DNA of 64,000 nt from an uncultured bacterium. Lineage in GTDB: Bacteria > Fidelibacterota > Marinisomatia > Marinisomatales > UBA1611. The stretch covers positions 9,560 through 73,559 of the forward strand of contig CAZYDX010000001.1 of assembly GCA_964646455.1 (NCBI GenBank), in the 5' to 3' direction. Below the pieces are notes generated by a model, which was not told the DNA's origin, did not search any database, and saw only the letters and a program-made list of their open reading frames with translations. The position numbers and the translations under genes were made by a program. Below are positions 24,020 to 61,977 of the stretch, piece by piece; position 1 is the first letter of the stretch, and every line of letters begins with the position of its first letter.

Positions 24020-24027
24020 ATGAAGAA

Positions 24028-25368: not shown

Positions 25369-25387
25369 TAAATCAAAAATTGAAGCA

Positions 25388-25879: not shown

Positions 25880-25894
25880 TTTATTTGAATTAAT

Positions 25895-26458: not shown

Positions 26459-26482
26459 TTTATTATTACTTCTCATTAAGTA

Positions 26483-40085: not shown

Positions 40086-41021
40086 ATGATGAATGATTTT
40101 ATTACATTGATGATCTTATCTTATTATAGTGAAAATAGAATCACTAAAAACTACAATCTAATTAAAGAGAGATTAGAAAAAGAAAAAATTTCGTTCGAGT
40201 TAATAATTATTGATGATGGATCAAATGATAACTCATATGAAGAAGCATTAAATATTGAAAAAATTGATAATAGGGTAAAAGCGTATCAGTTAAGTAAGAA
40301 TTATACTAGTCATTATTCTATTTTTGCAGGGTTTTCAGTTGCAAAAGGAAGTTGTGCAGTCGCAATACCTGATGATTTTCAAGTTCCTTTGGACACTGTT
40401 GTCGAAATGTATCGTCATTGGGAAAGAGGTTATAAAATCGTTGTACCTTATCGAGATCTAAGAGAAGATCCATTAATAAACCGTATTTTTTCAAATATTT
40501 ATTATAGCATTATGAATACTTTATCTGAAGTAAAATTTCCCAAGGGTGGTGCAGATGTTTTTCTTGCTGATAGAGAAGTAATTGATATTTTTAACAAAAA
40601 TATTCATCCAAAAAATACATCAACGATAGTTGAGGCACTTCGATTAGGATTCGATCCACTATTTATCCCTATGCATCGAGCAAAGGGCGTTAATATAAAA
40701 TCTCGCTGGTCATTTAAGAAAAAATTTAGGCTTGCGAAGGATACTTTCTTATCATCATCATCATTTCCTATAAAATTGATTTCTGTTTTGGGTATTGGAA
40801 CATTTTTCTTTTCTATTTTCGTAATTGTTTTTTATATATATGCTAAGTTGATTGGCTATGTGAAAATACCAGGATGGACTTTACTTGTTATTTTTATATC
40901 ATTTTTTAGTGGTCTAATATTACTGAGTCTGGGAATAATTGCTGAATATATATGGCGGATCTTTGATGAAGTTAAAGGAAGGCCAGGTTTTATAATTAAA
41001 AAAAAAGATAATATTGAGTAG
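40086..41021 (+). CDS. GT2 polyprenyl-phosphate glycosyltransferase (ArnC/GtrB/DPM1-like)
   Basis: 'IIIDDGSNDNS', 'AIPDDFQ', two C-terminal TM helices, and the typical tail 'LGIIAEYIWRIFDEVKGRPGFIIKKK'. Confidence 0.8.
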   Translation: MMNDFITLMILSYYSENRITKNYNLIKERLEKEKISFELIIIDDGSNDNSYEEALNIEKIDNRVKAYQLSKNYTSHYSIFAGFSVAKGSCAVAIPDDFQVPLDTVVEMYRHWERGYKIVVPYRDLREDPLINRIFSNIYYSIMNTLSEVKFPKGGADVFLADREVIDIFNKNIHPKNTSTIVEALRLGFDPLFIPMHRAKGVNIKSRWSFKKKFRLAKDTFLSSSSFPIKLISVLGIGTFFFSIFVIVFYIYAKLIGYVKIPGWTLLVIFISFFSGLILLSLGIIAEYIWRIFDEVKGRPGFIIKKKDNIE

Positions 41022-41427
41022 TTCAAGTCTTATTAATACTTGTAAAGTTTTGTCTCTACCAAAGATAGAAGATCCCCGGGGGAATTTGACATTTATTGAA
41101 AATAATAAGCACATACCATTTGAAATTAAAAGGATATTTTATATTTATGATGTTCCTACAGCTGAAAGTCGCGGAGCACATGCACATAAATCTCTTCATC
41201 AGTTCCTAGTTTGTCTTTCAGGAAGTTTTGATGTCACAATTGATGATGGAAAGAATAAGAAAAGAATCCATCTTAATAGACCATGGAAAGGCCTGTATAT
41301 TCCACCAAAAATATGGGCAGCAGAAGAAAATTTTGATCCTGGGACAGTATGTTTAGTTTTATGTTCAAATATATATATTGAGAATGATTATATAAGGGAT
41401 TATAAAGAATTCTTAAAACATATTTAA
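41014..41427 (+). CDS. FdtA/WxcM-like cupin, sugar-nucleotide 3,4-ketoisomerase
   Basis: 'LPKIEDPRGNLTFIE', 'IPFEIKRIFYIYDVP', 'RGAHAHKSLHQFLVCLSGSFDV'. TTG start overlaps the upstream TAG. Confidence 0.7.
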   Translation: MSSSSLINTCKVLSLPKIEDPRGNLTFIENNKHIPFEIKRIFYIYDVPTAESRGAHAHKSLHQFLVCLSGSFDVTIDDGKNKKRIHLNRPWKGLYIPPKIWAAEENFDPGTVCLVLCSNIYIENDYIRDYKEFLKHI

Positions 41428-41457
41428 TGAATAATTGTTTTTAAGGTAAAATATACA

Positions 41458-42273
41458 ATGATGAAAAAAATTAATATTATTGCTGAGATAGGATGGAACC
41501 ATATGGGAGATATGGATCTTGCTGCAAAAATGATTAATAAGGCTGCTAAAAATGGTGTTGATATTTGCAAGTTTCAAACTTGGTCTGTGGATAAGCTAAA
41601 ACCAGGCGTATGGGATAAAGATGGTCGTAGAGAAATTTATAAGAAAGCTCAATTATCAAAAGAAGATCACTCTTATTTGAAAACTATTTGTGAAAATAAT
41701 TCTGTAGAATTTCTCACCTCAGTTTTTAATATTAATGATCTTGTTTTCTTAAGTGAGTTAAATATGGAAATGATCAAGATTCCAAGTCATGAGGTTCATA
41801 ATCTGGAATTAATAAAGGCTTCTGTTGATTTATTTGATATTATTCTAATATCTACTGGTGCTGCGAAGTGGTTGGAAGTAGAAAAAATAATAGAAGCTGT
41901 AGATCCTGAAAAGCTCGTTTTTATGCATTGCGTATCGACTTATCCTTGTCCTCCAGAAAATATTAATCTTCCTAGAATGCAGAAACTAAAAGATTATACA
42001 TCTGCTGTTGGTTACAGCGGACATTTTACTGGGATAGATGATGCTATCAGTGCAATTTGTCATGGTGCGACCTTCATTGAAAAACATTTTACTATCGATC
42101 AAGATTTGCCAGGAAGAGATAATAAATTTGCTATTTTACCTAAGCAAATGAGATCACTTACCGATTTTAGAGATAAGTATGAAAAAATGAATATTGATTT
42201 AGGGTTAGACTTACAGGAATGTGAATTAGATACTTATGAAAATTATAGGGGTCGATGGAGTAAAAATGGCTAA
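41458..42273 (+). CDS. NeuB-family ulosonic-acid synthase, TIM-barrel only (no SAF domain)
   Basis: 'IIAEIGWNHMGDMDLAAKMINKAAKNGVDICKFQTW', 'MHCVSTYPCPPENINLPRM', 'VGYSGHFTGI', 'IEKHFTIDQ'. At 271 aa it is too short for the C-terminal antifreeze-like domain. Confidence 0.75.
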   Translation: MMKKINIIAEIGWNHMGDMDLAAKMINKAAKNGVDICKFQTWSVDKLKPGVWDKDGRREIYKKAQLSKEDHSYLKTICENNSVEFLTSVFNINDLVFLSELNMEMIKIPSHEVHNLELIKASVDLFDIILISTGAAKWLEVEKIIEAVDPEKLVFMHCVSTYPCPPENINLPRMQKLKDYTSAVGYSGHFTGIDDAISAICHGATFIEKHFTIDQDLPGRDNKFAILPKQMRSLTDFRDKYEKMNIDLGLDLQECELDTYENYRGRWSKNG

Positions 42274-43585
42274 ATCACGGATTCCTTTAATATCAATTAT
42301 AATTCGCACCTATAATGAAGAGAAATGGATTGGTAGATGCCTTAGAGGAATATTCAGCCAAAAAGTGGATGCAAAGATTGAAGTAATTTTGGTTGATAAT
42401 GAAAGTACTGACCATACAGTGCAAGTGGCAAAACGGTTTCCAATTAGTCAATGTATTACAATTAATAAATTTTTTCCAGGATTAGCGTTAAATAATGGTA
42501 TACGTGAATCAAAAGGCGATTATATTGTTTGTATATCTGCTCATTGTGTACCTGAAAATGATCAATGGCTAACTAAATTACTGGATAATCTTAAAGATAA
42601 TTCAGATATCGCAGGTGTATACGGTAGACAACTTCCTTTTAGTTTCACAGATCCAATAGATAAGCGTGATTTATTGATTGTCTTCGGATTAGATAAGCGT
42701 ATACAGCAAAATGATTATTTTTTTCATAATGCTAATAGTATGATACCAAGAAAAGTATGGGACAAGTATCCATTTGATGAAGAAGTTAGTAATATTGAAG
42801 ATAGAGTTTGGGGGAAGCAAGTAACAGAAGCTGGTTATAAAATTATTTATGAACCAAAAGCTGCAGTATATCATCATCATGGATTGCATCAAGGAAATGA
42901 AAAATCGAGAGCTAGAGGTGTCGTTTCAATTCTTGAACATGTTGATGAAGGCATATTGAATTCATTTCCACATTCGATGAAACCTGAAATGATTAATATT
43001 GCAGCAGTTATCCCTATAATAGGAGATATTTATAAAGACAAGGACCAATTACATCAATTTCAAAAAACGATAAATGAATTAAAAGAATCAAAATTAATTG
43101 AATCGATTTACTGTGTTTCAGATAATAATGAAGCTGCAGATTCCTTTGATATTAAATGGTTAGATAGAAAGTTAATATTGAAAGCTAATTCATTGCCGTT
43201 AGATCAATTATTAAAGAAAACTTTAGATTTGATAGAAAGTAAAGGTGAATGTCCAGATAGTATATTGTATGTAAATCATGATTATGTTAACCGTCCAAAA
43301 GGTATTTTTGATGAACTTATTAAAGATGCTCAGCTTAAAGGATGTGATACAGTATTTCCGGGTTTAATAGATTATGGTCATTATTGGTATTTTAATGATG
43401 AAAATAAATTTAAACAAACCGATTCATCATTAGAATCACGTAGAAAACGAGATCCACTTTATAAAGCGTTATATGGACTAGGATGTTTGACATCTTCATG
43501 GGTTCTGCGTTCGGGAAAAATGATAGGAGGAAAAGTAGGTATTCTTCCATTTTCTGATATCAAGTATTCTACACGATTAAAATAA
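42236..43585 (+). CDS. fusion protein: N-terminal GT2 glycosyltransferase + C-terminal degenerate cytidylyltransferase-like domain
   Basis: GT2 part: 'LISIIIRTYNEEKWIGRCLRGIFSQ', 'ILVDNESTDHT'. C-terminal part: 'INIAAVIPIIGD' and 'SRRKRDPLYKALYGLG' resemble CMP-NulO synthetase blocks but lack the R..SK loop. ATG 42266 is an alternative start. Confidence 0.55.
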   Translation: MKIIGVDGVKMAKSRIPLISIIIRTYNEEKWIGRCLRGIFSQKVDAKIEVILVDNESTDHTVQVAKRFPISQCITINKFFPGLALNNGIRESKGDYIVCISAHCVPENDQWLTKLLDNLKDNSDIAGVYGRQLPFSFTDPIDKRDLLIVFGLDKRIQQNDYFFHNANSMIPRKVWDKYPFDEEVSNIEDRVWGKQVTEAGYKIIYEPKAAVYHHHGLHQGNEKSRARGVVSILEHVDEGILNSFPHSMKPEMINIAAVIPIIGDIYKDKDQLHQFQKTINELKESKLIESIYCVSDNNEAADSFDIKWLDRKLILKANSLPLDQLLKKTLDLIESKGECPDSILYVNHDYVNRPKGIFDELIKDAQLKGCDTVFPGLIDYGHYWYFNDENKFKQTDSSLESRRKRDPLYKALYGLGCLTSSWVLRSGKMIGGKVGILPFSDIKYSTRLK

Positions 43586-43592
43586 GATTCAT

Positions 43593-44738
43593 TTGAAAAT
43601 AATCGATATAATTGGATATTCATTATCTTCACCTTATGGTGATGGAAATGTTTATGGACAACCTTTAGGTGTGAAGAGTGTTGGTATTGTTGAAGTGCAT
43701 ACTGATAATGAATACATTGGTATTGGGGAAACCTATTCTGGTGTTTATGTACCTGAATTAATAAATCCGATTGTAGAATATCTTAAATCTTTTATCATTG
43801 GTGCTGATCCTGATAACATTAGTGAAATTAATCATCTTCTTGAAATTCCATTTATATCTGGTAATGGATTAGTGCGTAGTATAATTAGTGCTATAGATAT
43901 AGCTCTGTGGGATATAAAAGGACAATCATTAAATAAACCTATCGCTAAAATATTAAATAGTCAGATAAGAGAATCAGTAAGTGTCTATGCTAGTGGAGGT
44001 TCAGTTACGATGAATAGTGATGAAATTTGCAATGATATAGAAAGAACACTAACCAAAGGTTATAACGCATATAAGATGCGGGTAGGACTTCAATCTTGGA
44101 AGAAAGATATTGAGCGAGTTTCAACAGCCAGAAATACGATTGGAGAAAATAATCAATTAATGATTGATGCAATTATGGGAACGTTACCAAATACTTGGGG
44201 CCTTGATAGAGCAAAAAAATGCATTAAAGATCTGTCCGTGTTCAATCTTACTTGGCTAGAGGAGCCATTACCTCCTGAAAATTTTTCTGGTTATCAAAAA
44301 CTAAATAAAGACTCACCCATTCCAATTGCTATGGGTGAGTCTTTAACTGCTACAAATGAATTTGAAGCATATATTTCTGGCAATTGCGTTGGTTATATCC
44401 AACCTGACGTAACACATTGTGGTGGATTTTCTAGAACTATAAAAGTCATAAATATTGCAAAAAAATACAATATCCCTGTTGCGTTACATGTCTGGGGAAG
44501 TGCTATTTCTATAATGTCTAATTTGCATATTGCATTGGCAATGCCTGAAGTAATCTGGCTTGAAATTCCCCAGGTTAGACTCAATCTTCTTTTCGATCAA
44601 CTATCAGAGAATATAAATATTGAGAATGGTTCTATATTTTTAATTGATAAACCTGGACTAGGAATAAGTATTAATAAAGAAGAAAAAAATAGATACCCTT
44701 TTATTCCAGGGAGCGGATATAAAGTTCCTTTAAAATAA
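43593..44738 (+). CDS. enolase-superfamily enzyme (mandelate racemase / acid-sugar dehydratase-like)
   Basis: 'DIALWDIKG', 'AYKMRVG', metal ligands in 'LMIDAIMG', 'LTWLEEPL' and 'AMGESL', plus 'YIQPDVTHCGG'. TTG start verified. Confidence 0.75.
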   Translation: MKIIDIIGYSLSSPYGDGNVYGQPLGVKSVGIVEVHTDNEYIGIGETYSGVYVPELINPIVEYLKSFIIGADPDNISEINHLLEIPFISGNGLVRSIISAIDIALWDIKGQSLNKPIAKILNSQIRESVSVYASGGSVTMNSDEICNDIERTLTKGYNAYKMRVGLQSWKKDIERVSTARNTIGENNQLMIDAIMGTLPNTWGLDRAKKCIKDLSVFNLTWLEEPLPPENFSGYQKLNKDSPIPIAMGESLTATNEFEAYISGNCVGYIQPDVTHCGGFSRTIKVINIAKKYNIPVALHVWGSAISIMSNLHIALAMPEVIWLEIPQVRLNLLFDQLSENINIENGSIFLIDKPGLGISINKEEKNRYPFIPGSGYKVPLK

Positions 44739-44739
44739 A

Positions 44740-45768
44740 ATGAATCAAGTTGGAAAACTCTTAATAGGATGCGATCTTTTTTTGGATCTCAAAATGTATC
44801 ATATACCAGATTATTTTATAAAATTAATGAAAAATAAATATGAAAATGTCGATTTAGTAGAAATCAATACCGTCAATTCTGAAAGTATTGATTATTCTAC
44901 AATTGATATTTATTGGGGAAATAGAATAACAAAAAATTTAATTGATGAACTAACATCACTAAAATGGATACATTTTGGTTCTGTTGGAGTAAATGCTAAA
45001 ATAAAGAATAAAGTTATAAATAGAAATATTCGAGTATCCAATAGTAGTGGAATTATGACAGATGCAGTTGTTTCTAGTGGATTAGCATTTATTTTTGCAT
45101 TTGCTAGAGGATTACATAACGTATGGAATCTCAAGGATAGTAATAAGTTTAATAGAAAATCTTATGATCAATTTTTTGAAAATACACATGATGTTTTTGG
45201 GCAGTCTATACTTATTGTAGGGTTTGGTGATATTGGAAAGAAACTTGCTTTAGCATGCAATTCTTTAGGAATGAAAGTTAGTATTATAAGAAAAAATTAT
45301 GATAATAAGCCCAAGTGGGTCAAAGCGTCTTATCCAATTAAAGAACTTAATGAAGCAGTAGAGGATATTGACTATATTGTTAATATTCTTCCATTAAATG
45401 ATCAAACTAAGGGTGTTTTCACAAAAAATATTTTCACAAAAATGAAAGATGAATCAATATTTATCAATATTGGTCGTGGAGATACTGTTATTGAATCTGA
45501 TTTAATCGATTCGTTAAAGAATAATATTATAGGTGGCGCGGGGTTAGATGTTTTTTCTTCTGAAAGTTATGTAGATCCTTCAACGCCTCTTATGCCAGAT
45601 TCTCCACTATTTTCGTTGCGAAATGTTATTTTAACACCTCATATTGGAGGATTAACTAATAGTTACTGGAAAAAGCAATGTAATTTATTTTTAGATAACT
45701 TAAAGCAGTTCATATCCGGTAAAGAATTAATTAATGAAATTTTCACTAATAATATAGTTTCTGATTGA
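44740..45768 (+). CDS. D-isomer-specific 2-hydroxyacid dehydrogenase
   Basis: 'SILIVGFGDIGKKLA', 'FINIGRGDTV', 'AGLDVF', 'LTPHIGGLT'. Confidence 0.75.
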   Translation: MNQVGKLLIGCDLFLDLKMYHIPDYFIKLMKNKYENVDLVEINTVNSESIDYSTIDIYWGNRITKNLIDELTSLKWIHFGSVGVNAKIKNKVINRNIRVSNSSGIMTDAVVSSGLAFIFAFARGLHNVWNLKDSNKFNRKSYDQFFENTHDVFGQSILIVGFGDIGKKLALACNSLGMKVSIIRKNYDNKPKWVKASYPIKELNEAVEDIDYIVNILPLNDQTKGVFTKNIFTKMKDESIFINIGRGDTVIESDLIDSLKNNIIGGAGLDVFSSESYVDPSTPLMPDSPLFSLRNVILTPHIGGLTNSYWKKQCNLFLDNLKQFISGKELINEIFTNNIVSD

Positions 45769-46472
45769 AAAGACATAATTCAAATAATATTTTAGGTATA
45801 ATACCAGCCCGAGGAGGATCAAAGGGCGTTCCCAAAAAGAACATACGTAAGATAAATGGTAAACCTCTGATTTACTACACAATCGCAGAATCACAAAAAT
45901 CAAAATTGTTAACTGACTTTGTTGTTTCAACAGAAAGTAAAGAAATTGCGGAATATTGCAAATCAATTGGGCATGAAATTCCTTTTATGCGTCCATTAGC
46001 TCTTTCTGAAGATCATGTAGAATCTTATCCTGTTATATATCATGCTCTTAAAGAAATGGAAAAAATAAAAAAAATTTATTATGATATCATAGTTATGTTA
46101 CAACCTACTACTCCATTAAGAATATTTTCTGATATTGATAATGCATTAGCAATGCTTTTGGAATCAGATGCAGAATCAATTGTTAGTATTGTTAATGTAG
46201 GTGGCTATCATCCTTTAAGAATGAAACAAATTAGTGATAATAATATTTTAGTTAATTATGTAGAACAGAAGTTTGAGAATATGCAGCCTAGACAGAGTTT
46301 GCCACCTGTTTTTATAAGGAATGGGGCTATTTATGCATCTAAAAGAAATATTATAATTAATAAAATGATAGTTGGACGTAGTTGTTTGGCCTATGAAATG
46401 CCATATGAGAGATCAGTTAATATTGATACTGAAATAGATTTTAATTTGGCTGAATTAATGATGAAAAAATAA
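45765..46472 (+). CDS. neuA: CMP-nonulosonate (acylneuraminate) cytidylyltransferase
   Basis: 'LGIIPARGGSKGVPKKNIRKINGKPLIYYTI', 'MLQPTTPLR', 'RQSLPPVFIRNGAIYA'. TTG start in a TTGA overlap. Confidence 0.8.
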   Translation: MKRHNSNNILGIIPARGGSKGVPKKNIRKINGKPLIYYTIAESQKSKLLTDFVVSTESKEIAEYCKSIGHEIPFMRPLALSEDHVESYPVIYHALKEMEKIKKIYYDIIVMLQPTTPLRIFSDIDNALAMLLESDAESIVSIVNVGGYHPLRMKQISDNNILVNYVEQKFENMQPRQSLPPVFIRNGAIYASKRNIIINKMIVGRSCLAYEMPYERSVNIDTEIDFNLAELMMKK

Positions 46473-46476
46473 ATGT

Positions 46477-47322
46477 ATGTTTTTCTATCGAACCTTAAAA
46501 AGAATAGAAAATAAAATTATGTTTTTGATTGATTTGTCATCCTTTGAATTTTGGAGAAATATATTGTCATTTTCAATGCCGACACAGAAGAAAATAAAAT
46601 TTGATTTTCAAATAATTGATTTATTAATAAAAAATCATCAAAAAGAAAAGATTTTACTTATAGGTAATGCTAAAACATCAAAAACATTAGGCAATGAAGT
46701 TAATTCTTTTGATGGAGATATTATAAGATTCAATCGCTTTCAGGATGGTTATGATGATTATTTGGGGTCTAAAACAACGCACTGGTTCCTTTCTAATGGC
46801 CTGACTTTTGATGAACGAAACTATGTTTATAATAATTTGGATAGAATAAAACAAACCAATCCAGATTTAATTAATTATCTTATGACAACATATAATTCGA
46901 ATACAGAATATCATGAAAAGAAAAAAGTTTTAAGTAAAGACAGAATAATTGATATAATTGATACTCGTCCATTAATTAGAATTCTAATTAATTTAACAAA
47001 TCAATTTATCAGTAGTAATGGTCATATAATTAATCTAAGGGATCCTATGCTTGTAAATTATGGTTATTTTAAACCATCTACAGGTTTTCTAAGTATTATT
47101 TATGCATTGAATAATTACAAACAAATTTTTATACACAATTTTGACTTTTTTCGCTCAGATCATTATTGGATAAAAAAGGAAAATTATGGTATGAATGAAG
47201 TTGATGGTAAGTATTATAAGGGTGTTGATTCCGATAAGGTTCAAGGAAATCATGAATTCATTTTTGAAGAGAATGTAATAAAGGAATTGATTAATAATAA
47301 ATTTATTAGATGGTTATCTTAA
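46477..47322 (+). CDS. GT29-like (animal-type) sialyltransferase homologue
   Basis: Sialylmotif L-like 'ILLIGNAKTSKTLGNEVNSFDGDIIRFNRFQDGYDDYLGSKTTHWFL'; S-like 'KPSTGFLSIIYALNNYKQIFIHNFDFF'; III-like 'DHYW'; VS-like 'NHEFIFEE' (H-x4-E). All four occur in canonical order. Confidence 0.6.
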   Translation: MFFYRTLKRIENKIMFLIDLSSFEFWRNILSFSMPTQKKIKFDFQIIDLLIKNHQKEKILLIGNAKTSKTLGNEVNSFDGDIIRFNRFQDGYDDYLGSKTTHWFLSNGLTFDERNYVYNNLDRIKQTNPDLINYLMTTYNSNTEYHEKKKVLSKDRIIDIIDTRPLIRILINLTNQFISSNGHIINLRDPMLVNYGYFKPSTGFLSIIYALNNYKQIFIHNFDFFRSDHYWIKKENYGMNEVDGKYYKGVDSDKVQGNHEFIFEENVIKELINNKFIRWLS

Positions 47323-47335
47323 TAAAGGCAGCAAT

Positions 47336-47800
47336 ATGAATCTGAAGGATATTAAACTCATAGTTTATGATTTTGATGGAGTAATGACAGATAATAAGGT
47401 TTATTTAGATCAAAATAGCAATGAAATGGTTAGAGTAAATCGATCTGATGGTTTAGCAATAGCAATAATTAAAGAAATGGGAATTAAACAAATAATTATA
47501 TCTACTGAAGAAAATCCAGTTGTAAGTGTTAGAGCTAAAAAACTAAAAATTAAATGTTTCCACAATATTGATAATAAGAAAAATGAACTGAAACGATATT
47601 GTAGTAACAATAATATTGATTTATCTGAAGTTGTTTATGCAGGAAATGATGTTAATGATTTAGAAGCAATGCAAATATGTGGTTGCACCTTTTGTCCTGC
47701 AGATGCACATATGAATATAAAGAAAATTTCAGATTATGTTCTTAAATCAAATGGTGGCGATGGAGTGATAAGAGAAATGTTGGATTTCATTAAAAAATAA
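47336..47800 (+). CDS. KdsC-type HAD phosphatase (ulosonate-phosphate phosphatase)
   Basis: 154 aa. 'LIVYDFDGVMTDNKVY' (DxDxT), 'YAGNDVNDLEAM', 'GGDGVIRE'. Size and motifs are those of Kdo-8-P / Kdn-9-P phosphatases. Confidence 0.75.
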   Translation: MNLKDIKLIVYDFDGVMTDNKVYLDQNSNEMVRVNRSDGLAIAIIKEMGIKQIIISTEENPVVSVRAKKLKIKCFHNIDNKKNELKRYCSNNNIDLSEVVYAGNDVNDLEAMQICGCTFCPADAHMNIKKISDYVLKSNGGDGVIREMLDFIKK

Positions 47801-47805
47801 ATGTT

Positions 47806-47810
47806 AGGAG
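47806..47810 (+). promoter_or_regulatory. Shine-Dalgarno-like AGGAG 6 nt upstream of ATG 47817
   Basis: 'gttAGGAGaaaaaaATG' read directly. Confidence 0.5.
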
Positions 47811-47816
47811 AAAAAA

Positions 47817-48668
47817 ATGTCTATTTTTATAATTGCTGAAATTGGGATTAACCATAATGGAGATCTTGAAATCGCAAAAAAACTTATTGATGTTGCTGCA
47901 GATGCAGGCGCTAATGCAGTAAAATTTCAAAAAAGAGAAATTGATTTAGTATATTCAAAATCAATGCTTGATAGTCCTCGTGAGAGTCCATGGGGGACAA
48001 CTCAAAGAGAACAAAAAAAAGGACTTGAGTTTGGAGCAGATGATTATAAAAAAATTGACAAATATTGTAGAGAAAAAGATATTGAGTGGTTTGCCTCAGC
48101 CTGGGATATAAATAGTCAAAATTTCTTAAATCAGTTTGATCTTAAATATAATAAAATAGCTTCAGCTATGATTGTTTACGAAGAACTTTTGCAAAAAGTA
48201 GCATCTGAGGGTAAGCATACATTTATTTCTACTGGTTTGAGTAGCTTAACTGATATTGATAGAGCTGTGCAGATTTTTAGGGATTCGAATTGTCCTTTTG
48301 AATTAATGCATTGTGTTTCAACCTATCCAATGCGCGATGAAGATGCTAATCTAAAAATGATAGAAACATTACGTGAGAGATATAATTGTAAAATAGGTTA
48401 TAGTGGGCACGAAGTTGGTCTTGCAGTATCATATGCAGCAGCAGCATTAGGAATTACTTCTCTTGAACGACATATTACACTAGATCGAGCAATGTACGGA
48501 TCAGATCAGTCTGCCTCAATTGAGCCTGCGGGTTTTAAAATGTTAGTAGGCGCTATTCGGAAGATTGAACAAGCATTAGGAGATGGAGAAAAACGTATTT
48601 TAGAAGCAGAAATTCCTATTGCTCAAAAATTACGTGAACATTTTAAATGGGAATCCAGCAAAAAATAA
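47817..48668 (+). CDS. neuB: NeuB-family nonulosonic-acid synthase, NANS-like, no SAF domain
   Basis: 'IIAEIGINHNGDLEIAKKLIDVAADAGANAVKFQKR', 'MHCVSTYPMRDEDANLKMI', 'IGYSGHEVGLAVSYAAAALGITSLERHITLDRAMYGSDQSASIEP'. Only 283 aa. Confidence 0.8.
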   Translation: MSIFIIAEIGINHNGDLEIAKKLIDVAADAGANAVKFQKREIDLVYSKSMLDSPRESPWGTTQREQKKGLEFGADDYKKIDKYCREKDIEWFASAWDINSQNFLNQFDLKYNKIASAMIVYEELLQKVASEGKHTFISTGLSSLTDIDRAVQIFRDSNCPFELMHCVSTYPMRDEDANLKMIETLRERYNCKIGYSGHEVGLAVSYAAAALGITSLERHITLDRAMYGSDQSASIEPAGFKMLVGAIRKIEQALGDGEKRILEAEIPIAQKLREHFKWESSKK

Positions 48669-49504
48669 AAAACCCTATTGGAGTTATGCAAGGGCGCTTA
48701 TTGCCAAAGTATAATGGACGTTACCAAGCACATCCTGTAGATTATTGGGAAGATGAATTTCCCATTGCGTTTGAATTAGGTCTAGATTGTATAGAATTTA
48801 TTCTTGATTTTAATGACTTTCAAAATAATCCATTAATGACAATCGATGGTAAAAAAAAGATTCAAAAAATAACAAAACAAACAGGAATTGCTGTGCATTC
48901 AGTTTGCGCAGATTATTTAATGTATCTCCCATTGCATTCTGAAAATGAGCATGATGCTTCTTTAAGCCTAGAAATAGTTAAATCATTGATTATAACGGCT
49001 GCAGAATTAGATATAAGTGATATAGTAATACCTTGTGTTGATAATGCAAGTATTAAAAACATAAAGCTAAGGGATAGATTTATAGAGGTTCTATCTTCTG
49101 TTTTAAAAATAGCTGAAGAAAATAATGTAAACCTTGCTCTAGAAACAGATTTAAATCCTTATCAATTAATAAAATTAATTGAAGAATTTGATTCAACCAG
49201 TATTAAAGTAAATTATGATATAGGCAATAGTGCGTCATTAGGATACAATCATCTTGATGAAATAAAATCATATGGTTCTCTTATAAGTGATGTACATATA
49301 AAAGATCGTAAGTTAGGTGGTGGTTCTGTAGTGCTTGGTCAAGGTAATGCTGATATACCTGGTTGCATTAATACTTTTAGAAGTATTAATTATAAAGGAA
49401 TTTATATATTACAAATATATAGAGATGATGAAGGAATATCTATTTTTAAAAAACAATTAAGTTGGCTTAAAAAAAATGTTCCATCTTTATGGCAAAAGAA
49501 TTAG
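48647..49504 (+). CDS. xylose-isomerase-like TIM-barrel protein (sugar-phosphate isomerase/epimerase family)
   Basis: 'IGVMQGRLLP', 'GLDCIEFILD', 'NLALETD', 'VNYDIGNSA', 'DVHIKDR' fit the metal-ligand spacing of this fold. ATG 48686 is an alternative start. Confidence 0.55.
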   Translation: MGIQQKIKNPIGVMQGRLLPKYNGRYQAHPVDYWEDEFPIAFELGLDCIEFILDFNDFQNNPLMTIDGKKKIQKITKQTGIAVHSVCADYLMYLPLHSENEHDASLSLEIVKSLIITAAELDISDIVIPCVDNASIKNIKLRDRFIEVLSSVLKIAEENNVNLALETDLNPYQLIKLIEEFDSTSIKVNYDIGNSASLGYNHLDEIKSYGSLISDVHIKDRKLGGGSVVLGQGNADIPGCINTFRSINYKGIYILQIYRDDEGISIFKKQLSWLKKNVPSLWQKN

Positions 49505-50226
49505 CAGTAATAATCCCAGCAAGATCTGGATCTAAAGGATTATCAGATAAAAACATAAAGCTTTTGGCAGGGCATCCTCTTCTGTCTTATAGTATTGCAG
49601 CAGCTAAACTTTCTAACATTAACCCTATATTAGTTTCAACTGATTCAGATGAATATGCTGATATCGCGAAATATTATGGAGCAAGCGTTCCATTTATAAG
49701 ACCAAAAGAGATATCAGCAGATAAATCAACTGATTTTGAATTTATGAAACATGCTATGGAATGGTATAAAAAACATCATAGTAAATTACCAAATTATTGG
49801 TTACATCTTCGTCCAACAACTCCACTAAGAGATCCACATATAATTAATAAAGCAATAGAATTGATTACAAAAAATCCTTTAGCTACCTCACTGCGGTCGG
49901 GCCATGAAGTTCCAGAATCTCCATTTAAATGGTTTATGAAAGATAAAGATGGTTTTTTTAAAGGTCTTCAAAACAATCTTACTCCAGAATTAGTTAATGA
50001 GCCGCGTCAGAAATTTCCTAAGATGTATAATCCCGATGGATATATTGATATTGTCAAATCATCTCATGTGCTTTATAATAATACACTTCATGGAGATAAA
50101 ATGTTAGTTTTTGTAACGCCAAGATGTACTGAAGTTGATACAAAAGAAGATTTTGATTATTTAGAATATGAAATTAGAAAGCAGAAATCACCATTATTAA
50201 ACTGGTTAGAAAAAAAGGTATCATAA
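49489..50226 (+). CDS. CMP-nonulosonate cytidylyltransferase (second copy)
   Basis: 'LAVIIPARSGSKGLSDKNIKLLAGHPLLSYSI', 'LHLRPTTPLR', 'RQKFPKMYNPDGYIDI'. Confidence 0.75.
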   Translation: MAKELAVIIPARSGSKGLSDKNIKLLAGHPLLSYSIAAAKLSNINPILVSTDSDEYADIAKYYGASVPFIRPKEISADKSTDFEFMKHAMEWYKKHHSKLPNYWLHLRPTTPLRDPHIINKAIELITKNPLATSLRSGHEVPESPFKWFMKDKDGFFKGLQNNLTPELVNEPRQKFPKMYNPDGYIDIVKSSHVLYNNTLHGDKMLVFVTPRCTEVDTKEDFDYLEYEIRKQKSPLLNWLEKKVS

Positions 50227-50227: not shown

Positions 50228-51613
50228 ATGTCTGGATTAGGTTTCTCTCACAAATCTCAGTTGGTTCCATTAGTCAATACAAAGCACAGAATCATTAAAA
50301 CCCCAATTCCTGTTCCAGAAAGTATTTCATATTTAAATAAATTATATAATTCTGAATCACATTCAATGCATGGACAGCTTCCTATGGTTTGGGATAGAGC
50401 AGATGGGTTTCAAGTCTTTGATCCGTGGGGAAATAAATGGCTTGATTTTTCAAGTACAATTTTCGTTACGAATGCTGGTCATGGAAATAAAAGGATTACA
50501 AATGCTTTGAATAAGGTTATCAATAAATCATTATTACATACATATACTTTTAGTTCGAAAGAACGTATTGATTATATAGATTATTTAATAAAAAATACTC
50601 CAAAACAATTTGAAAAGGCTTTTTTACTTTCTGCAGGCACAGAAGCAACTGAATGCGCACTAAAACTTATGCGACTTAATGGACAAAAGAATGATAAGCG
50701 ATTAGGAGGAATAATTTGTTTTGAAGGTAATTGGCATGGAAGAACAATGGGTGCCCAAATGATGAGTGGCAATATAGCTCAGAAGGATTGGATTGGATAT
50801 CATGATCCAAATATACATCACCTTCCTTTTCCTTATCCTTGGAAAAAGGAAGCTATAAGAGATCCACGTAAGTTTTTTACAGATAATTTAAATAGTCTTT
50901 TAGATGAGAAAAATTTAGATCCAAAAAAGGACATATGTGGAATAATGATGGAAACTTTTCAAGGATGGGGTGCAGTCTTTTACCCACCAGAATTTGTTCA
51001 AGAAGTGCAATCTTTTGCACGTGAGATTAATGCCGTATTGGCATTTGATGAGATGCAGTCTGGTTTTGGACGTACTGGAGAACTATTTGGTTATATGCAT
51101 TATGGTGTAGAGCCTGATCTGATTTGTTGTGGAAAAGGTGCAAGTTCAAGCTTACCCCTATCAATAGTTTTGGGTAGTGTTAATTTAATGGATATTCCTG
51201 AAATTGGTTCTATGAGCTCTACGCATTCGGCAAATCCAATGGTATGTGCTGCTGGAAAGGCAAATTTAGAAGCTATTCTTAAAGATGGATTATTAAAAAA
51301 CTCTAAGTTGCTTGGTAAAACTTTTCATGACGAGTTAAATAAAATGCAACACTATTTTCCTAAACATCTTTCTTATATTCAAGGAAAGGGATTGATTTCT
51401 GCTTTGATCTTCTATGATAGAGATGGAAACCCTCTAAACAATCTTTGTGACCGCGTAGTTGAGTTTTGCTTTCAACGTGGACTTCTAGTAGTGCATACAG
51501 GAAGAGAATCTATTAAACTAGCGCCACCTTTAACAATGAATGAAGAAGCTCTAAAAGAAGGGATTGATGTTATACGTAGTAGTATAGCTGATGCGATCAA
51601 TGAAATATGTTAA
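50228..51613 (+). CDS. class-III PLP aminotransferase
   Basis: 'SAGTEATECALKLMR', 'AFDEMQSGFGRTGELFG', lysine block 'CCGKGASSSLPLS'. Confidence 0.8.
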   Translation: MSGLGFSHKSQLVPLVNTKHRIIKTPIPVPESISYLNKLYNSESHSMHGQLPMVWDRADGFQVFDPWGNKWLDFSSTIFVTNAGHGNKRITNALNKVINKSLLHTYTFSSKERIDYIDYLIKNTPKQFEKAFLLSAGTEATECALKLMRLNGQKNDKRLGGIICFEGNWHGRTMGAQMMSGNIAQKDWIGYHDPNIHHLPFPYPWKKEAIRDPRKFFTDNLNSLLDEKNLDPKKDICGIMMETFQGWGAVFYPPEFVQEVQSFAREINAVLAFDEMQSGFGRTGELFGYMHYGVEPDLICCGKGASSSLPLSIVLGSVNLMDIPEIGSMSSTHSANPMVCAAGKANLEAILKDGLLKNSKLLGKTFHDELNKMQHYFPKHLSYIQGKGLISALIFYDRDGNPLNNLCDRVVEFCFQRGLLVVHTGRESIKLAPPLTMNEEALKEGIDVIRSSIADAINEIC

Positions 51614-52038
51614 ATAATATTAGGCATACTGGAATTGTAGTTAGAGATCTTAATAAATTAATTTCATTTTATGAAGGTCTTGGCTTCTCAATAGATAATA
51701 GACAGATAGAAAAGGGACTATATATAGATAAAATAGTTGGTTTAGATAATGTTTCCATAGAGACAGTTAAACTAAAATCGCCATGTGGTGGTTTAATAGA
51801 ACTATTAAACTATATTTCGCATCCTGATAAAAAAAAGATTATAAAACAACCATCTAATAAGCTAGGTTGCTCACATATTGCTATATCTGTAAAAAATTTA
51901 GATAAAGCAGTAATATTTGTTCAAAATAATGGCGGATCAATCGTGAACAATCCTGTGAGTTCACCGAATGGTACAGTTCGTGTTGTATATTGTCATGATC
52001 CTGAAGGAGTGCTCATGGAATTAGTAGAGGAAATTTAA
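51607..52038 (+). CDS. VOC/glyoxalase-fold protein
   Basis: 'IRHTGIVVRDL', 'CSHIAISVKNLD', 'YCHDPEGVLMELVE'. Confidence 0.65.
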   Translation: MLNNIRHTGIVVRDLNKLISFYEGLGFSIDNRQIEKGLYIDKIVGLDNVSIETVKLKSPCGGLIELLNYISHPDKKKIIKQPSNKLGCSHIAISVKNLDKAVIFVQNNGGSIVNNPVSSPNGTVRVVYCHDPEGVLMELVEEI

Positions 52039-52703
52039 TGTCAGACTATATTAATGTAATTTACAGCACTGATAAGATCCCTAAAACAGATTACCCATAT
52101 AGGTTATCATCATATTTATTTAATAATTATAAACTTCAAAAAGGGCAAAAGATACTAGAACCAGGATGTGGAAGAGGTGAATTCTTAAATGGTTTTCGAA
52201 AACTGGGTATGGAAGTATATGGATGTGATATATCTCCTCAGGCAGGTGAAGAATTAAATAATATTGAAGTCAAACAAACAGATATTGAAAATGACCCATT
52301 ACCATATGATGATAATTTTTTTGATGTAGTTTTTAGTAAATCATTATTGGAACATCTTATTCATCCTGACCATTATCTACTAGAAGTAAATAGAATTCTT
52401 AAGCCGGGGGGGAAAGTTCTTACACTTGTTCCTGATTGGGAATCGAATTATAAAATATACTTTGATGATTTTACTCATAGGACACCTTTTACAAAGGTTT
52501 CTCTAAATGATATTTATCTTATGTGCGATTACGTGAACGTTGAAATAATTAAATTTAGACAATTACCTATAGTATGGAAATTACCATTTCTTAATTATTT
52601 TTGTGCTTTCATCTCACCATTTATCCCTGTTAGAACAACTAATAAATTTTTACGATGGTCAAGAGAGCTAATGCTAATAGGATATGCTAATAAAGGAAAA
52701 TGA
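52038..52703 (+). CDS. class I SAM-dependent methyltransferase
   Basis: 'ILEPGCGRGEFL', 'FDVVFSKSLLEHL', 'LKPGGKVL'. TAATG overlap with the upstream gene. Confidence 0.7.
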   Translation: MSDYINVIYSTDKIPKTDYPYRLSSYLFNNYKLQKGQKILEPGCGRGEFLNGFRKLGMEVYGCDISPQAGEELNNIEVKQTDIENDPLPYDDNFFDVVFSKSLLEHLIHPDHYLLEVNRILKPGGKVLTLVPDWESNYKIYFDDFTHRTPFTKVSLNDIYLMCDYVNVEIIKFRQLPIVWKLPFLNYFCAFISPFIPVRTTNKFLRWSRELMLIGYANKGK

Positions 52704-53470
52704 ATTTAGAATTAAATAATAAATGTTTTTTAGTAACTGGTTCTAGTCGAGGTATTGGAAAATCTATTGCTAAACGATTATTAAGAGAAGGTGCTAGAGT
52801 AGCGATTGTATCTAGGGGAGAGGAAGACCTCCATTTAACTGGTGAAGAACTTAAGAAAGAATTTTCTGCTGATAATGTTCAAATGTTTTTATCAGATTGC
52901 ACATCATATGAAGCTCTTATAAAATTAAAAAAAGATATTATTCATGTATGGGGTGGAATTGATGGCGTTGTTGCTAACGTTGGAGATGGACGTAGTGTTA
53001 GTGAAGCTATACCGGATGTTGACCAATGGAATCGTACATGGAAAACCAATTTTGAATCATCTTATCTTACAGCAAGCGTTTTCTTAGAATTATTAAAAGA
53101 ATCAAAAGGTAGCATATTATTTATTTCATCAATTGCTGGAGTTGAATCCATAGGTGCGCCAGTAGATTATTCGATAGCAAAATCTGCAGTAAATTCATTT
53201 GCAAAAAATCTTTCAAAAAAAATAGCTCCAGATATTAGGGTTAATGTGATTGCGCCAGGAAATATATTTTTTAAGGGCGGTTCGTGGGATCAAAAATTAT
53301 TAAAAAATAGTAAAAAGATTGATAAAATGCTTAAGGAAAATGTGCCAATGCAGCGATTTGGAAAGCCAGAAGAAATAGCAGATATTGCTGCTTTTTTGTG
53401 TTCTAATCGTTCATCATTTATAACAGGTACTATAATTAGAGTTGATGGTGGTCAAACAACTTCTTTCTAA
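52700..53470 (+). CDS. short-chain dehydrogenase/reductase (classical SDR)
   Basis: 'FLVTGSSRGIGKSIA', 'FISSIAG', YxxxK in 'YSIAKSAVNSFAKNL', 'NVIAPGNI'. Confidence 0.85.
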   Translation: MNLELNNKCFLVTGSSRGIGKSIAKRLLREGARVAIVSRGEEDLHLTGEELKKEFSADNVQMFLSDCTSYEALIKLKKDIIHVWGGIDGVVANVGDGRSVSEAIPDVDQWNRTWKTNFESSYLTASVFLELLKESKGSILFISSIAGVESIGAPVDYSIAKSAVNSFAKNLSKKIAPDIRVNVIAPGNIFFKGGSWDQKLLKNSKKIDKMLKENVPMQRFGKPEEIADIAAFLCSNRSSFITGTIIRVDGGQTTSF

Positions 53471-53546: not shown

Positions 53547-55295
53547 ATGAGTCATTTTTTAGTAACAACACCATTAAAAGAGACCTGGCCAACTGATAAT
53601 AGCAAAATACTATTTTTAGGTGAATGGTGTCTATTGTATTACGAAAAAAAATCATTGTCTTCTGTGAATGGACATGTTTTGGATTATCATTGGGATGATA
53701 GAAATAAATTATATAATGATTATAAATATATACAAAAAATTTATGAACAACTCTTAATCTTATTATCTTATCAGTTAAATACTATTCATAATGTTGATCA
53801 TTCAGTACGTTATTGGAGAATATTAGTTGGACCATGGCTCGGATATTTTCTACAAATTCTGTTTGATAGATGGTCTTCTCTAACTCAAGCAATGAATTCG
53901 TATGAGATTGATAACACAATAATTCTAGATTATGAATCTGAGCATTTTATTCCAAAAGGAATGGATGACTTCCATGAATATTATATAAGCGATGAATGGA
54001 ATCATTTTGTTTATGGAGAAATATTGAAGATGGCAGGAGAAGTTTCATTATCTTATCAAAATCCAGAACAAGTGCAAATAGAAAATAAAATTAATAATAC
54101 AAATCATAATTTTTCATTAAAAAAAATATTAAAATCAGTTTTAAATAATCTTTCTTACTTAAATAGAGACAATGATTACTTTTTCATTTCTACTCAACTA
54201 CCAAAGTTATTACAATTGAAACTTGAATTAAAACTTAATCAATTTCCAATAATAAGGTTCTCTAGACAAGTTCCGAATAAAAAACCTGATTTAAAGAAGC
54301 GCAGTTGGGAATTAAATCCGACAAATGATTCAGATTTTGTAAGAATTTCTACAAAGTTAATTAGCAAATTTTTACCTACAGTTTATCTTGAAGGATATAA
54401 GTCACTCATAGAGATCGTGCAAAATTTAACTTGGCCAAAACGACCTAAAGCAATTTGGACTTCAGATTCGCATTATGATGATGATGTTTTTAAAGCTTGG
54501 TCTGCAAATAAAATAGAACATGGTTCAAAATTAATTATCGGACAGCATGGAGGTCACTTTGGAATTGGTCGTTGGTATTTTTTGGAAGAACATGAAATCT
54601 CTATTTCTGATAAGTATTTTAGTTGGGGATGGACAGATAATTCTATTCCTAAAGTTATTCCAGTCGGACAATTGAAAAATAAAAAACCATTAACTTTTGA
54701 TTATTCAAATCAAAAAAAGTTGCTTATGGTATGTCTAAGTATGCCTCGATATAGTTACCATATGTATAGTGTCATTGTTGCAAGTCAATATTTGGACTAT
54801 TTAAATCAACAATTCTTATTTGTTAAATCACTTAAAAAATCAATACAGAATAAGTTAATTATTAGATTATATAATAAGGATTATGGCTGGGAACAGGAGA
54901 ATCGTTGGAAAGATAAGTTTCCAAATATCCAATTAGATAATGGTAAAAAGAATATGGAATCACTTATTATTGGTTCACGCCTTTATGTGTCAACATATAA
55001 TGCAACAACATATTTGGAATCATTAACAATGAATATACCAACTATAATTTTTTGGAATCATAATCATTGGGAAATTCGTGAATCGGCAAAACCATATTTT
55101 GAAAAGATGAAAAAAGTTGGAATATTTCATGATAATCCTGTATCAGCTGCTAGGCAAATTAACTCTGTATGGGATGATGTGGATAAATGGTGGTCTAGCA
55201 ACGAAGTTTCTGAAGTAGTAAAAATATTTTGTAATAGATTTTCTAAAATATATAAAAATCCTTTAAAAAAGATCATTAAAGAAATAAAAAATTAA
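53547..55295 (+). CDS. large uncharacterised putative transferase (resembles the family I recall as LIC12162-type, found in nonulosonate loci)
   Basis: 582 aa. The N-terminus 'FLVTTPLKETWPTDNSKILFLGEWCLLY' matches my memory of that family's start (..T..EETWP....LFLGEWC..). No search was done. Confidence 0.4.
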   Translation: MSHFLVTTPLKETWPTDNSKILFLGEWCLLYYEKKSLSSVNGHVLDYHWDDRNKLYNDYKYIQKIYEQLLILLSYQLNTIHNVDHSVRYWRILVGPWLGYFLQILFDRWSSLTQAMNSYEIDNTIILDYESEHFIPKGMDDFHEYYISDEWNHFVYGEILKMAGEVSLSYQNPEQVQIENKINNTNHNFSLKKILKSVLNNLSYLNRDNDYFFISTQLPKLLQLKLELKLNQFPIIRFSRQVPNKKPDLKKRSWELNPTNDSDFVRISTKLISKFLPTVYLEGYKSLIEIVQNLTWPKRPKAIWTSDSHYDDDVFKAWSANKIEHGSKLIIGQHGGHFGIGRWYFLEEHEISISDKYFSWGWTDNSIPKVIPVGQLKNKKPLTFDYSNQKKLLMVCLSMPRYSYHMYSVIVASQYLDYLNQQFLFVKSLKKSIQNKLIIRLYNKDYGWEQENRWKDKFPNIQLDNGKKNMESLIIGSRLYVSTYNATTYLESLTMNIPTIIFWNHNHWEIRESAKPYFEKMKKVGIFHDNPVSAARQINSVWDDVDKWWSSNEVSEVVKIFCNRFSKIYKNPLKKIIKEIKN

Positions 55296-61958: not shown

Positions 61959-61977
61959 TATTTAATTTTAATTAATT

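Follow-up and report, generated by a model that had tools for sequence, protein, structure and literature searches.

A widespread SAF-less NeuB-family synthase and its gene neighbours point to a probable phosphate-dependent bacterial route to CMP-activated nonulosonic acids

The DNA considered here is a 64,000-nucleotide (nt) stretch (the window) from an uncultured bacterium of the Marinisomatales (Fidelibacterota; GenBank assembly GCA_964646455.1, contig CAZYDX010000001.1, positions 9,560 to 73,559 of the forward strand). Its four genes at 47336–50226 probably encode the core of a phosphate-dependent pathway, resembling the routes of animal NANS and of Kdn-9-phosphate (Kdn, ketodeoxynonulosonic acid), to a nonulosonic acid activated with cytidine monophosphate (CMP); we put the probability of this reading at about 0.7. 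In the proposed pathway a NeuB-family synthase without a SAF domain would condense phosphoenolpyruvate with a hexose 6-phosphate to yield a nonulosonate 9-phosphate (for the simplest substrate, mannose 6-phosphate, this would be Kdn-9-phosphate), a KdsC-type phosphatase of the haloacid dehalogenase (HAD) type would take off the 9-phosphate, and a cytidylyltransferase would form the CMP-sugar, which a transferase, possibly the LIC12162-family protein encoded downstream, would place on a surface glycan. A UlaE-like triosephosphate isomerase (TIM) barrel and a short-chain dehydrogenase/reductase (SDR) could alter stereochemistry or substituents, with either the hexose phosphate or, once condensation has taken place, the ulosonate as their substrate; an aminotransferase, a vicinal oxygen chelate (VOC) protein and a methyltransferase would make up a further, less frequently recurring tailoring module. 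From the comparisons below we infer that the substrate is phosphorylated, which sugar is made, and in what order and by what chemistry it is tailored. The gene order, the coordinates and the peptide motifs quoted in the original prediction, which was made from the letters of the window alone, were all found as described, and the domain assignments of the four proteins are unambiguous.

The SAF domain was not found in the synthase in Pfam and NCBIfam scans, and its absence, as had been claimed, is taken to be real because PF03102 was the only domain matched (243 bits, cutoff 22.1; E 3.9e-72) and the match to TIGR03569 ended at model position 274 of 329. After the barrel the protein carried just a linker helix, and the AlphaFold2 model (pLDDT 82) comprised a TIM barrel followed by a C-terminal helix. 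Scores fell below the classical equivalog cutoffs for both TIGR03569 (258.6 versus 399.65 bits) and TIGR03586 (195.4 versus 340.25 bits); the best NCBIfam match was the NeuB_NnaB model, and both NCBI and JGI label the family N-acetylneuraminate synthase. For comparison, the sequences of human NANS, Neisseria meningitidis NeuB, Escherichia coli NeuB and Campylobacter jejuni LegI were confirmed by exact look-up, and BT1714 (346 aa, with a SAF domain) was recovered as the Bacteroides thetaiotaomicron synthase adjoining a 99%-identical copy of BT1713 (locus L092). Human NANS gave the highest BLASTP score among the references compared with the window synthase (40% identity, 212 bits, over 272 residues with 3 gap positions); the scores were 157 bits (33%) for a classical NeuB with a SAF domain located upstream on the same contig, 121 bits (29%) for a second NeuB of the window, starting at 41458, and 117 bits (30%) for BT1714. 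The best solved relative was PDB 6ncs, a 290-aa SAF-less NeuB from Leptospira (E 6e-48).

Residues of the active site, which are more telling for the type of synthase than a tree, were compared in 81 family members and are given in N. meningitidis NeuB (Nm) numbering. The metal-binding and catalytic residues known from the Neisseria structure (Nm E25, K53, Q55, K129, Y186, H215, E234, H236 and D247) were kept in 81/81, and the positions at the distal end of the sugar site that set classical enzymes apart from NANS and BT1714 are collected in Table 1; in the window synthase Nm 56, 57, 134 and 288 correspond to Lys39, Arg40, Met118 and Lys271.

Table 1. Residues at five diagnostic synthase positions (Nm numbering)
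Position	Classical NeuB/LegI	NANS	BT1714	SAF-less family
Nm-56	Thr/Ser	Lys	Lys	Lys
Nm-57	aromatic	Ser	Arg	Arg (81/81)
Nm-134	Glu	Asp	Asp	Met (78/81)
Nm-288 (linker)	Phe/Val/Ile	Lys	Lys	Lys (78/81)
Nm-314 (SAF domain)	Arg	not Arg	not Arg	without SAF domain

We defined a phospho-type signature in this analysis from two characterised enzymes only (NANS and BT1714): Lys56, no Glu134, Lys288, no Arg314, and a loop motif, [WF]G.T..E.[KR]..LE, which lies right after strand 2 and is common to the whole group with the NANS/BT1714 pattern. The window synthase has all of these features and Arg57 in addition; its nearly invariant Lys271 sits in the short C-terminal tail that is modelled as a helix. Trp112 and Met134 are specific to the family and differ from NANS and BT1714. 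According to a published large-scale study, Nm Glu134 is found at or next to the expected site of the phosphate of N-acetylmannosamine (ManNAc) 6-phosphate, the use of a phosphorylated substrate by NANS is credited to its alpha2-beta2 loop, and NANS does not conserve Arg314 (PMC8208679). This loop may well be the region bearing the [WF]G.T..E.[KR]..LE motif. Phosphate could be accommodated by the extra positive charge together with the loss of Glu134, and the SAF domain might become dispensable once Arg314 is not required.

Two simpler markers that had been proposed for phosphate dependence fared less well. GYSGHE in place of a G-x-S-D-H-T block is no such marker, since phosphate-dependent BT1714 has GFSDHT and the window NeuB at 41458, of the classical Glu134 type, has GYSGHF; nor is the loss of the SAF domain, because the characterised NANS and BT1714 both retain it.

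A neighbour-joining tree of the catalytic domain (500 bootstraps; a simple distance method) was built, an alignment and tree having been suggested with the original prediction. The SAF-less family was monophyletic in 500/500 bootstraps and clustered with NANS, BT1714 and two paralogues, apart from NeuB, LegI, PseI, SpsE and the window NeuB at 41458. Support for the larger grouping was moderate, with family, NANS and BT1714 forming a clade in 243/500 bootstraps and in another 192/500 if 6ncs joins them (435/500 in total).

The HAD protein encoded directly before the synthase is predicted to be a phosphatase of the KdsC/KDN-9-P-phosphatase type (C0 type) that would remove the 9-phosphate from the synthase product. 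It matched Hydrolase_3 (E 1.1e-11) and had the core residues D10, D12 and D107. Its best NCBIfam matches were the KDN-9-P phosphatase model NF058599 (118 bits, cutoff 180) and KdsC TIGR01670 (104.1 bits, cutoff 106.95), and its best solved relatives were Streptomyces avermitilis 3mmz (E 4.6e-36) and BT1713 itself (3e81, E 2.2e-24). At BT1713 positions 56, 64 and 67 it has Glu, Arg and Lys, residues that Lu et al. (2009) and Daughtry et al. (2013) reportedly describe as substrate-binding and specificity markers; E. coli KdsC presumably has Arg at position 56. Among the HADs found beside family members, Glu56 was present in 52/52, Arg64 in 35/52 and Lys67 in 36/52 (Lys or Arg in 48/52).

The synthase belongs to a very large family. 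Its close relatives numbered at least 8000 candidates of about 282 aa, with 74–84% identity among the top 120, and in a species-level genome collection the family occurred in more than 15 phyla at 61–84% identity; the taxa that have it include Marinimicrobia, Pelagibacteraceae, Prochlorococcus, SAR86, SAR116, Omnitrophota, Planctomycetota, Bacteroidota, Bacillota, Actinomycetota and Spirochaetota. To call the gene set a eukaryote-like toolkit, as had been done, is misleading for a synthase family so widespread across bacterial phyla. Neighbours were counted at 80 family loci, no more than 8 kb from the synthase, with profiles of the window's own proteins. A CTP_transf_3 gene was near the synthase in 60 of the 80, and a KdsC-type HAD in 52 (42/57 where both flanks span 4 kb or more); the HAD- and CTP-linked loci include Bacillota and Actinomycetota, phyla that make no lipopolysaccharide (LPS) with Kdo (ketodeoxyoctonic acid).

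Fusion proteins were found among relatives at 40–53% identity to the window synthase. CTP_transf_3, HAD and NeuB are joined in Nonomuraea maritima, and HAD and NeuB in several Mucilaginibacter species and in two metagenomic proteins; other fusions were NeuB with CTP_transf_3, NeuB with SAF and AP_endonuc_2 (P0548, P0582), and NeuB with SAF and GT29. All of the HAD-fused relatives show the NANS/BT1714 residue pattern, and their HAD domains also carry Glu at the position of BT1713 Glu56. Of all the evidence at hand, the fusion of phosphatase to synthase speaks most strongly for a phosphorylated synthase product, and the occurrence of fused enzymes in cultured Mucilaginibacter and Nonomuraea makes the prediction easy to test.

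The cytidylyltransferase at 49489–50226 is, by its family matches, a CMP-ulosonate synthetase: it scored 73.8 bits against PF02348 (threshold 22.6), and its best solved relative was the CMP-N-acetylneuraminic acid (Neu5Ac) synthetase 6ifd (E 8e-30). With 117.5 bits it lay below the PseF equivalog cutoff of 205.7, and it is assigned at family level. In sum, the phosphate-dependent core put forward in the original prediction is supported by comparative evidence, namely the similarity to NANS, the neighbour-joining grouping, the active-site signature, the HAD linkage and the fusions.

Several observations weigh against a phosphate-dependent route. There was no HAD within 8 kb of the synthase in 28 of the 80 loci, and the window HAD lies below the curated cutoffs of both of its models, narrowly so for KdsC TIGR01670. 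The grouping with NANS and BT1714 has moderate support, 49% (87% with 6ncs), in a simple distance method. NANS and BT1714 keep the SAF domain and have Asp, not Met, at Nm-134, so the binding mode in the family may differ from theirs. Aminotransferases and oxidoreductases are frequent neighbours, which suggests that in many cases the end product is a sugar other than plain Kdn, and the methyltransferase neighbours together with the family-specific Met134 and Trp112 likewise speak against plain Kdn as the final product.

The core at 47336–50226 fits as the front half of a longer operon that would reach to about 55295 (Table 2), beyond the four genes to which the prediction had been confined. The junctions from the HAD gene to the end of the SDR gene at 53470 are 16, -22, -16, 1, -7, -1 and -4 nt; with genes that overlap (by at most 22 nt) or sit no more than 16 nt apart, this run is taken as one operon. 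The LIC12162-family gene follows the SDR gene after a gap of 76 nt.

Table 2. Genes of the proposed pathway and the GT29-like gene before it (window coordinates)
Feature	Coordinates	Strand	Details
HAD phosphatase	47336-47800	+	154 aa; DFDGVMTD and GNDVNDLE present
NeuB-family synthase	47817-48668	+	283 aa; peptide block IGYSGHEVGLAVSYAAAALGITSLERHITLDRAMYGSDQSASIEP present
Xylose-isomerase-fold TIM barrel	48647-49504	+	285 aa; PF01261 (AP_endonuc_2) E 4.4e-27
Cytidylyltransferase (CTP_transf_3)	49489-50226	+	245 aa; PF02348 E 2.3e-20
Class III (omega-type) aminotransferase	50228-51613	+	PF00202 E 5.5e-80
VOC/glyoxalase-fold protein	51607-52038	+	weak NCBIfam matches: glyoxalase I, methylmalonyl-CoA epimerase
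S-adenosylmethionine-dependent methyltransferase	52038-52703	+	methyltransferase Pfam families on identical gene in locus L001
SDR	52700-53470	+	SDR family matches
LIC12162-family putative transferase	53547-55295	+	TIGR04331 537.4 bits versus cutoff 225
GT29-like protein	46477-47322	+	Pfam Glyco_transf_29 E 2.2e-6; 27.7 bits versus threshold 23

The TIM barrel is UlaE-like; the prediction for it is metal-dependent epimerisation or isomerisation at a carbon adjoining a carbonyl of a sugar phosphate or ulosonate. UlaE was its nearest solved relative by sequence (3cqh, E 3.5e-12) and scored TM 0.84–0.87 by fold (model pLDDT 88); the next relatives were ketose 3-epimerases, the 3-keto-glucoside 4-epimerase YcjR, and isomerases. 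Against the UlaE/SgbU equivalog models it scored about 72 bits (cutoffs 200–317). The Glu-Asp-His ligands are kept, and the second Glu of UlaE is an invariant Gln in 21 locus orthologues and 31 database homologues, which makes a classical two-base epimerase mechanism doubtful. Two roles are candidates, supplying or remodelling a hexose 6-phosphate or changing a stereocentre of the ulosonate. A published reading of such domains as phosphatases (PMC3438082) was set aside, as the nearest relatives of the window protein are epimerases and isomerases and a dedicated HAD is present. The NeuB-"endonuclease" fusion of Leptospira type was also dropped as a guide to the window TIM barrel: the TIM domains of P0548 and P0582 had no pairwise similarity to it or to a second TIM barrel of the contig, and being too different they do not allow the inference to be transferred.

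Across the 80 loci a TIM barrel of the same Pfam family was near the synthase in 36 and lacking in 44. Copies at the level of orthologues (at least 150 bits) were found at 21 loci, mostly followed by two SDR genes, and SDR orthologues (at least 95 bits) at 22, mostly directly after the TIM barrel. The TIM barrel with two SDRs recalls systems that oxidise, epimerise and reduce, and the window SDR probably serves the TIM barrel, the aminotransferase or both as redox partner. Orthologues of the class III aminotransferase (300–690 bits) followed the CMP-transferase at 13/80 loci, a VOC protein (with PF00903 on the identical copy of the window gene in locus L001) adjoined such an aminotransferase at 14/80, and methyltransferase orthologues were present at 10/80. 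The aminotransferase is a candidate for a tailoring step or for the supply of an amino-sugar phosphate, and the methyltransferase is a putative tailoring enzyme. The TIM barrel and the SDRs, often joined by the class III aminotransferase, the VOC protein and the methyltransferase, stand out as a conserved set of putative tailoring genes. Unbiased clustering of the open reading frames (ORFs) around the synthase brought up further recurrent neighbours, namely DegT aminotransferases (27/80 neighbourhoods), class IV aminotransferases, GFO oxidoreductases, a thiamine pyrophosphate (TPP) enzyme and enzymes of nucleotide sugars. In loci L047, L050 and L051 (about 8840–10620) an acetolactate-synthase-like TPP enzyme lies between the SAF-less synthase and the HAD, a hint that the ulosonate may undergo branched-chain chemistry or extension by two carbons. 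The LIC12162-family protein, whose family TIGR04331 is named after a gene in the Leptospira O-antigen/nonulosonic acid region, is a candidate for transferring the activated (CMP-) sugar; genes of this family also lie beside family members in L018, L074 and L078.

For the sugar itself, mannose 6-phosphate giving Kdn would be the simplest reading, since the synthase shows no linkage to NeuC, NanE, a kinase or an acetyltransferase and the residue aligned with human NANS Met42 is hydrophobic. In agreement with the original prediction, a UDP-N-acetylglucosamine 2-epimerase (NeuC) was not found in the window by Pfam scans of about 60 ORFs or by tblastn with two Epimerase_2 proteins (none at E < 1). 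In the clustering of all neighbouring ORFs at the 80 loci no kinase family recurred beside the synthase, NeuC was present in only 5 loci, and neither an acetyltransferase nor NanE was linked to the family. The Met42-aligned residue is Val in the window synthase and in 45/81 members and Ile or Leu in most others; it is hydrophobic in the Kdn-capable human and Bacteroides enzymes too, and Thr in mouse NANS. An effect of the M42T exchange in NANS was reportedly described by Hao et al. in 2006. Actinomycetes, among which the family and its fusions occur, make Kdn-containing teichulosonic acids, with a cluster that has NeuA and NeuB homologues (PMC3479208, PMC13011467).

Three other readings were weighed. 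Chemistry entirely on sugar phosphates, in which the SDR, TIM barrel and class III aminotransferase remodel a hexose 6-phosphate (oxidise, epimerise or isomerise, then transaminate or reduce, by the logic of NtdABC for kanosamine and of YcjQRS) before a NANS-like synthase makes a new amino or epimeric nonulosonic acid, is unlikely in our estimate. It would account for the TIM-SDR-SDR triad directly after the synthase in most of the 21 loci with orthologue-level TIM barrels, for the aminotransferase, VOC and methyltransferase module of 10–14/80 loci, and for Met134 and Trp112, at which the family departs from NANS and BT1714; the TIM barrel's closest relative, UlaE, works on a sugar phosphate. 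Against it, the HAD was present with none of TIM barrel, SDR or class III aminotransferase in 24/80 loci and the synthase is highly conserved (61–84% identity), and as the core so often stands without tailoring genes, this argues for one common substrate; tailoring could equally come after condensation, as in Kdo8N biosynthesis. It is a similarly tentative thought that synthase, TIM barrel, SDR and class III aminotransferase might constitute a third general way of making nonulosonic acids, with all the chemistry, stereo-inversion and amination included, on sugar phosphates or free ulosonate and not on nucleotide sugars. If true, a previously undescribed amino or methylated nonulosonic acid would be expected on abundant marine bacteria, and the "animal" phosphorylated route would be an old and widespread bacterial invention.

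An animal-type route from ManNAc 6-phosphate to Neu5Ac-9-phosphate seems quite improbable. In such a route the TIM barrel, which comes from an enzyme group that deprotonates next to a carbonyl, would supply ManNAc 6-phosphate, for example by 2-epimerising N-acetylglucosamine 6-phosphate, and therefore neither NeuC nor a kinase would be needed. NANS is the closest characterised relative of the synthase and has the GYSGHE and LERHITLD blocks in common with it, and Leptospira, with related genes, has been reported to make Neu5Ac by a proposed animal-like route (PMC3438082). Such a route is disfavoured by the lack of any acetyltransferase, NanE, NeuC or ManNAc kinase linked to the family, by Met at Nm-134 where NANS has Asp, by the hydrophobic Met42-aligned position as in Kdn-capable enzymes, and by the 44 loci that have no TIM barrel. 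A classical phosphate-independent synthase of Neu5Ac, legionaminic or pseudaminic acid type, the HAD then serving Kdo synthesis as an unrelated KdsC or acting as a general sugar phosphatase, would suit the plain N-acetylneuraminate synthase label, the NeuB_NnaB top model and the DegT-type aminotransferase neighbours, and is very improbable given the HAD-NeuB fusions, the HAD linkage in phyla without LPS, Glu in all neighbouring HADs where E. coli KdsC presumably has Arg, the missing classical markers Glu134 and Arg314, scores below the NeuB and PseI equivalog cutoffs, and a separate classical NeuB-SAF cluster on the same contig.

The GT29-like gene before the HAD had been counted as a partner in the pathway, and in this role it was rejected: a homologue was present in 0/80 family loci, and the protein had no significant similarity, in pairwise comparison, to the GT29 domain of P0503. 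The GT29-like call itself stands above its Pfam threshold and is weak. The gene probably belongs to the upstream module that runs from NeuB 41458 to the CMP-transferase at 45765, not to the phosphate-dependent pathway. P0503 is a metagenomic protein of 595 aa, 47% identical to the window synthase, in which a NANS-like NeuB, a SAF domain and a GT29-like sialyltransferase domain are joined; it ties GT29-like domains to the NANS-like type of synthase in some organism.

The window as a whole is a one-strand island of glycan biosynthesis with about 29% G+C. No tRNA or rRNA genes were found in it, and in about 19 kb past its two ends (the contig has 95 kb) only glycan genes and no housekeeping gene were found. 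Upstream on the contig lie Wza/Wzz export genes, which point to a diderm bacterium, and the classical NeuB-SAF cluster, and downstream more sugar-modifying genes; the contig has at least three NeuB genes and at least five CTP_transf_3 genes. The region 41014–47322 is a second, separate ulosonic-acid module around NeuB 41458–42273 (271 aa, SAF-less, of the classical Glu134 type), with an FdtA-like cupin, a 449-aa GT2 fusion, an enolase-superfamily sugar-acid dehydratase, a 2-hydroxyacid dehydrogenase, a CMP-transferase and the GT29-like protein, an unusual combination of enzymes for a nonulosonic acid pathway. The third NeuB (classical, with SAF domain, 352 aa) lies just upstream on the same contig (L097 5264–9877; window 182–931 is the end of the last gene) with a nucleotidyltransferase of the NTP-transferase family, a PglD-like acetyltransferase, an unrelated AP_endonuc_2 TIM barrel and a CBS plus GHMP kinase protein, preceded by Wza/Wzz.

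Elsewhere in the window, one protein (30574–32745) combines a pyruvate-kinase barrel, a PUA-like domain and ATP sulfurylase, and two genes are sulfotransferase-like (8059–9081 and 28978–30513); together these suggest a sulfated surface glycan and an odd route of sulfate activation. The region 20511–28641 has a split transketolase, a methyltransferase, a Zn-dependent alcohol dehydrogenase, a second class III aminotransferase, a hexapeptide acyltransferase, a VOC protein and a 581-aa ORF with no Pfam match, and may be another sugar-building module. The notion that its aminotransferase, VOC and 581-aa genes (24028–28641) duplicate the downstream module was discarded, the aminotransferases being 24% identical and the other pairs dissimilar. 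A cyclase-family protein, a HAD hydrolase and an HpcH/HpaI-type aldolase (61341–63356 and L095 10777–13382), with a methyltransferase, an epimerase and a CMP-transferase past the window end, may provide an aldolase-based route to a further keto-deoxy acid sugar. An HldE-like bifunctional kinase/nucleotidyltransferase (12543–14066) and a GmhA-like SIS protein (15152–15718) indicate a heptose branch in the same island.

Nonulosonic acids on cell surfaces affect recognition by phages, grazers and immune systems, and the usual teaching assigns the phosphorylated route to animals and treats Bacteroides as an odd exception. The present comparisons suggest a compact SAF-less version of this route in more than 15 bacterial phyla, including the dominant ocean lineages Pelagibacteraceae, Prochlorococcus, SAR86, SAR116 and Marinimicrobia. 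For genome annotation, the residue signature is offered as a means of sorting phosphate-dependent synthases from classical ones, all of which are now labelled "N-acetylneuraminate synthase".

Among known systems, the animal route (NANS, EC 2.5.1.57, then Neu5Ac-9-phosphate phosphatase and CMAS) has the same logic of synthase, phosphatase and CMP-synthetase. NANS and the window synthase share FQK[RS], [WF]G.T..E.[KR]..LEF, GYSGHE, LERHITLD and GSD..AS.EP, share Lys at Nm-56 and Nm-288, and both lack the SAF Arg314. Unlike NANS, the window synthase has no C-terminal SAF/antifreeze-like domain and has Met, not Asp, at Nm-134; unlike the animal route, the phosphatase is of KdsC type and not NANP, there is no GNE-type epimerase/kinase, and the genes form a bacterial operon. 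The Kdn route of B. thetaiotaomicron, with synthase BT1714 and the adjacent C0-type HAD BT1713, is likewise bacterial and phosphate-dependent. BT1713 and the window HAD both have Glu56, Arg64 and Lys67, and BT1714 and the window synthase both have Lys56, Arg57 and Lys288 and lack Glu134. BT1714 differs in its SAF domain and GFSDHT block and is only 30% identical, the window HAD reaches 118 bits of the 180 set by the BT1713 equivalog cutoff, and the window operon adds the TIM barrel, SDR, aminotransferase and methyltransferase to what is seen in Bacteroides.

The nonulosonic acid cluster of Leptospira has a SAF-less NeuB (6ncs) and the LIC12162 family, both paralleled in the window operon; 6ncs lacks the [WF]G.T..E loop and Arg57 and fell inside the phospho-type clade in only 192/500 bootstraps. 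A NeuB fused to an AP_endonuc_2 domain in Leptospira was taken as evidence of an animal-like phosphorylated route (PMC3438082); unlike in that reading, the window TIM barrel is more like the epimerase UlaE than a phosphatase, and a HAD phosphatase is encoded separately. The Kdo pathway (KdsD, KdsA, KdsC, KdsB) has the same four-step logic of isomerase, phosphoenolpyruvate-condensing synthase, C0-type HAD and CMP-transferase, and the window phosphatase and CMP-transferase are homologous to KdsC and KdsB. It differs in that the window synthase is of the NeuB family and not KdsA/DAHPS, the TIM barrel is unrelated to KdsD, a nine-carbon product is expected, and the HAD has Glu at BT1713 position 56, where E. 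coli KdsC presumably has Arg. The TIM barrel has the fold and Glu-Asp-His metal ligands of UlaE (L-xylulose-5-phosphate 3-epimerase) at about 22% identity, with Gln for the second Glu. YcjR, a 3-keto-glucoside 4-epimerase, works with the dehydrogenases YcjS and YcjQ in an oxidise-epimerise-reduce scheme.

Homologues of NeuB without SAF had been noticed before as an "environmental" group with no assigned function (PMC8208679), and a bacterial phosphorylated route had been established for B. thetaiotaomicron and served as the model for the Prymnesium pathway (PMC6200933). What the comparisons made here newly indicate is a very widespread SAF-less subfamily with a phospho-type signature, joined to a KdsC-type phosphatase and a CMP-transferase by gene linkage and by fusion, which would appear to form the core of variable tailoring modules.

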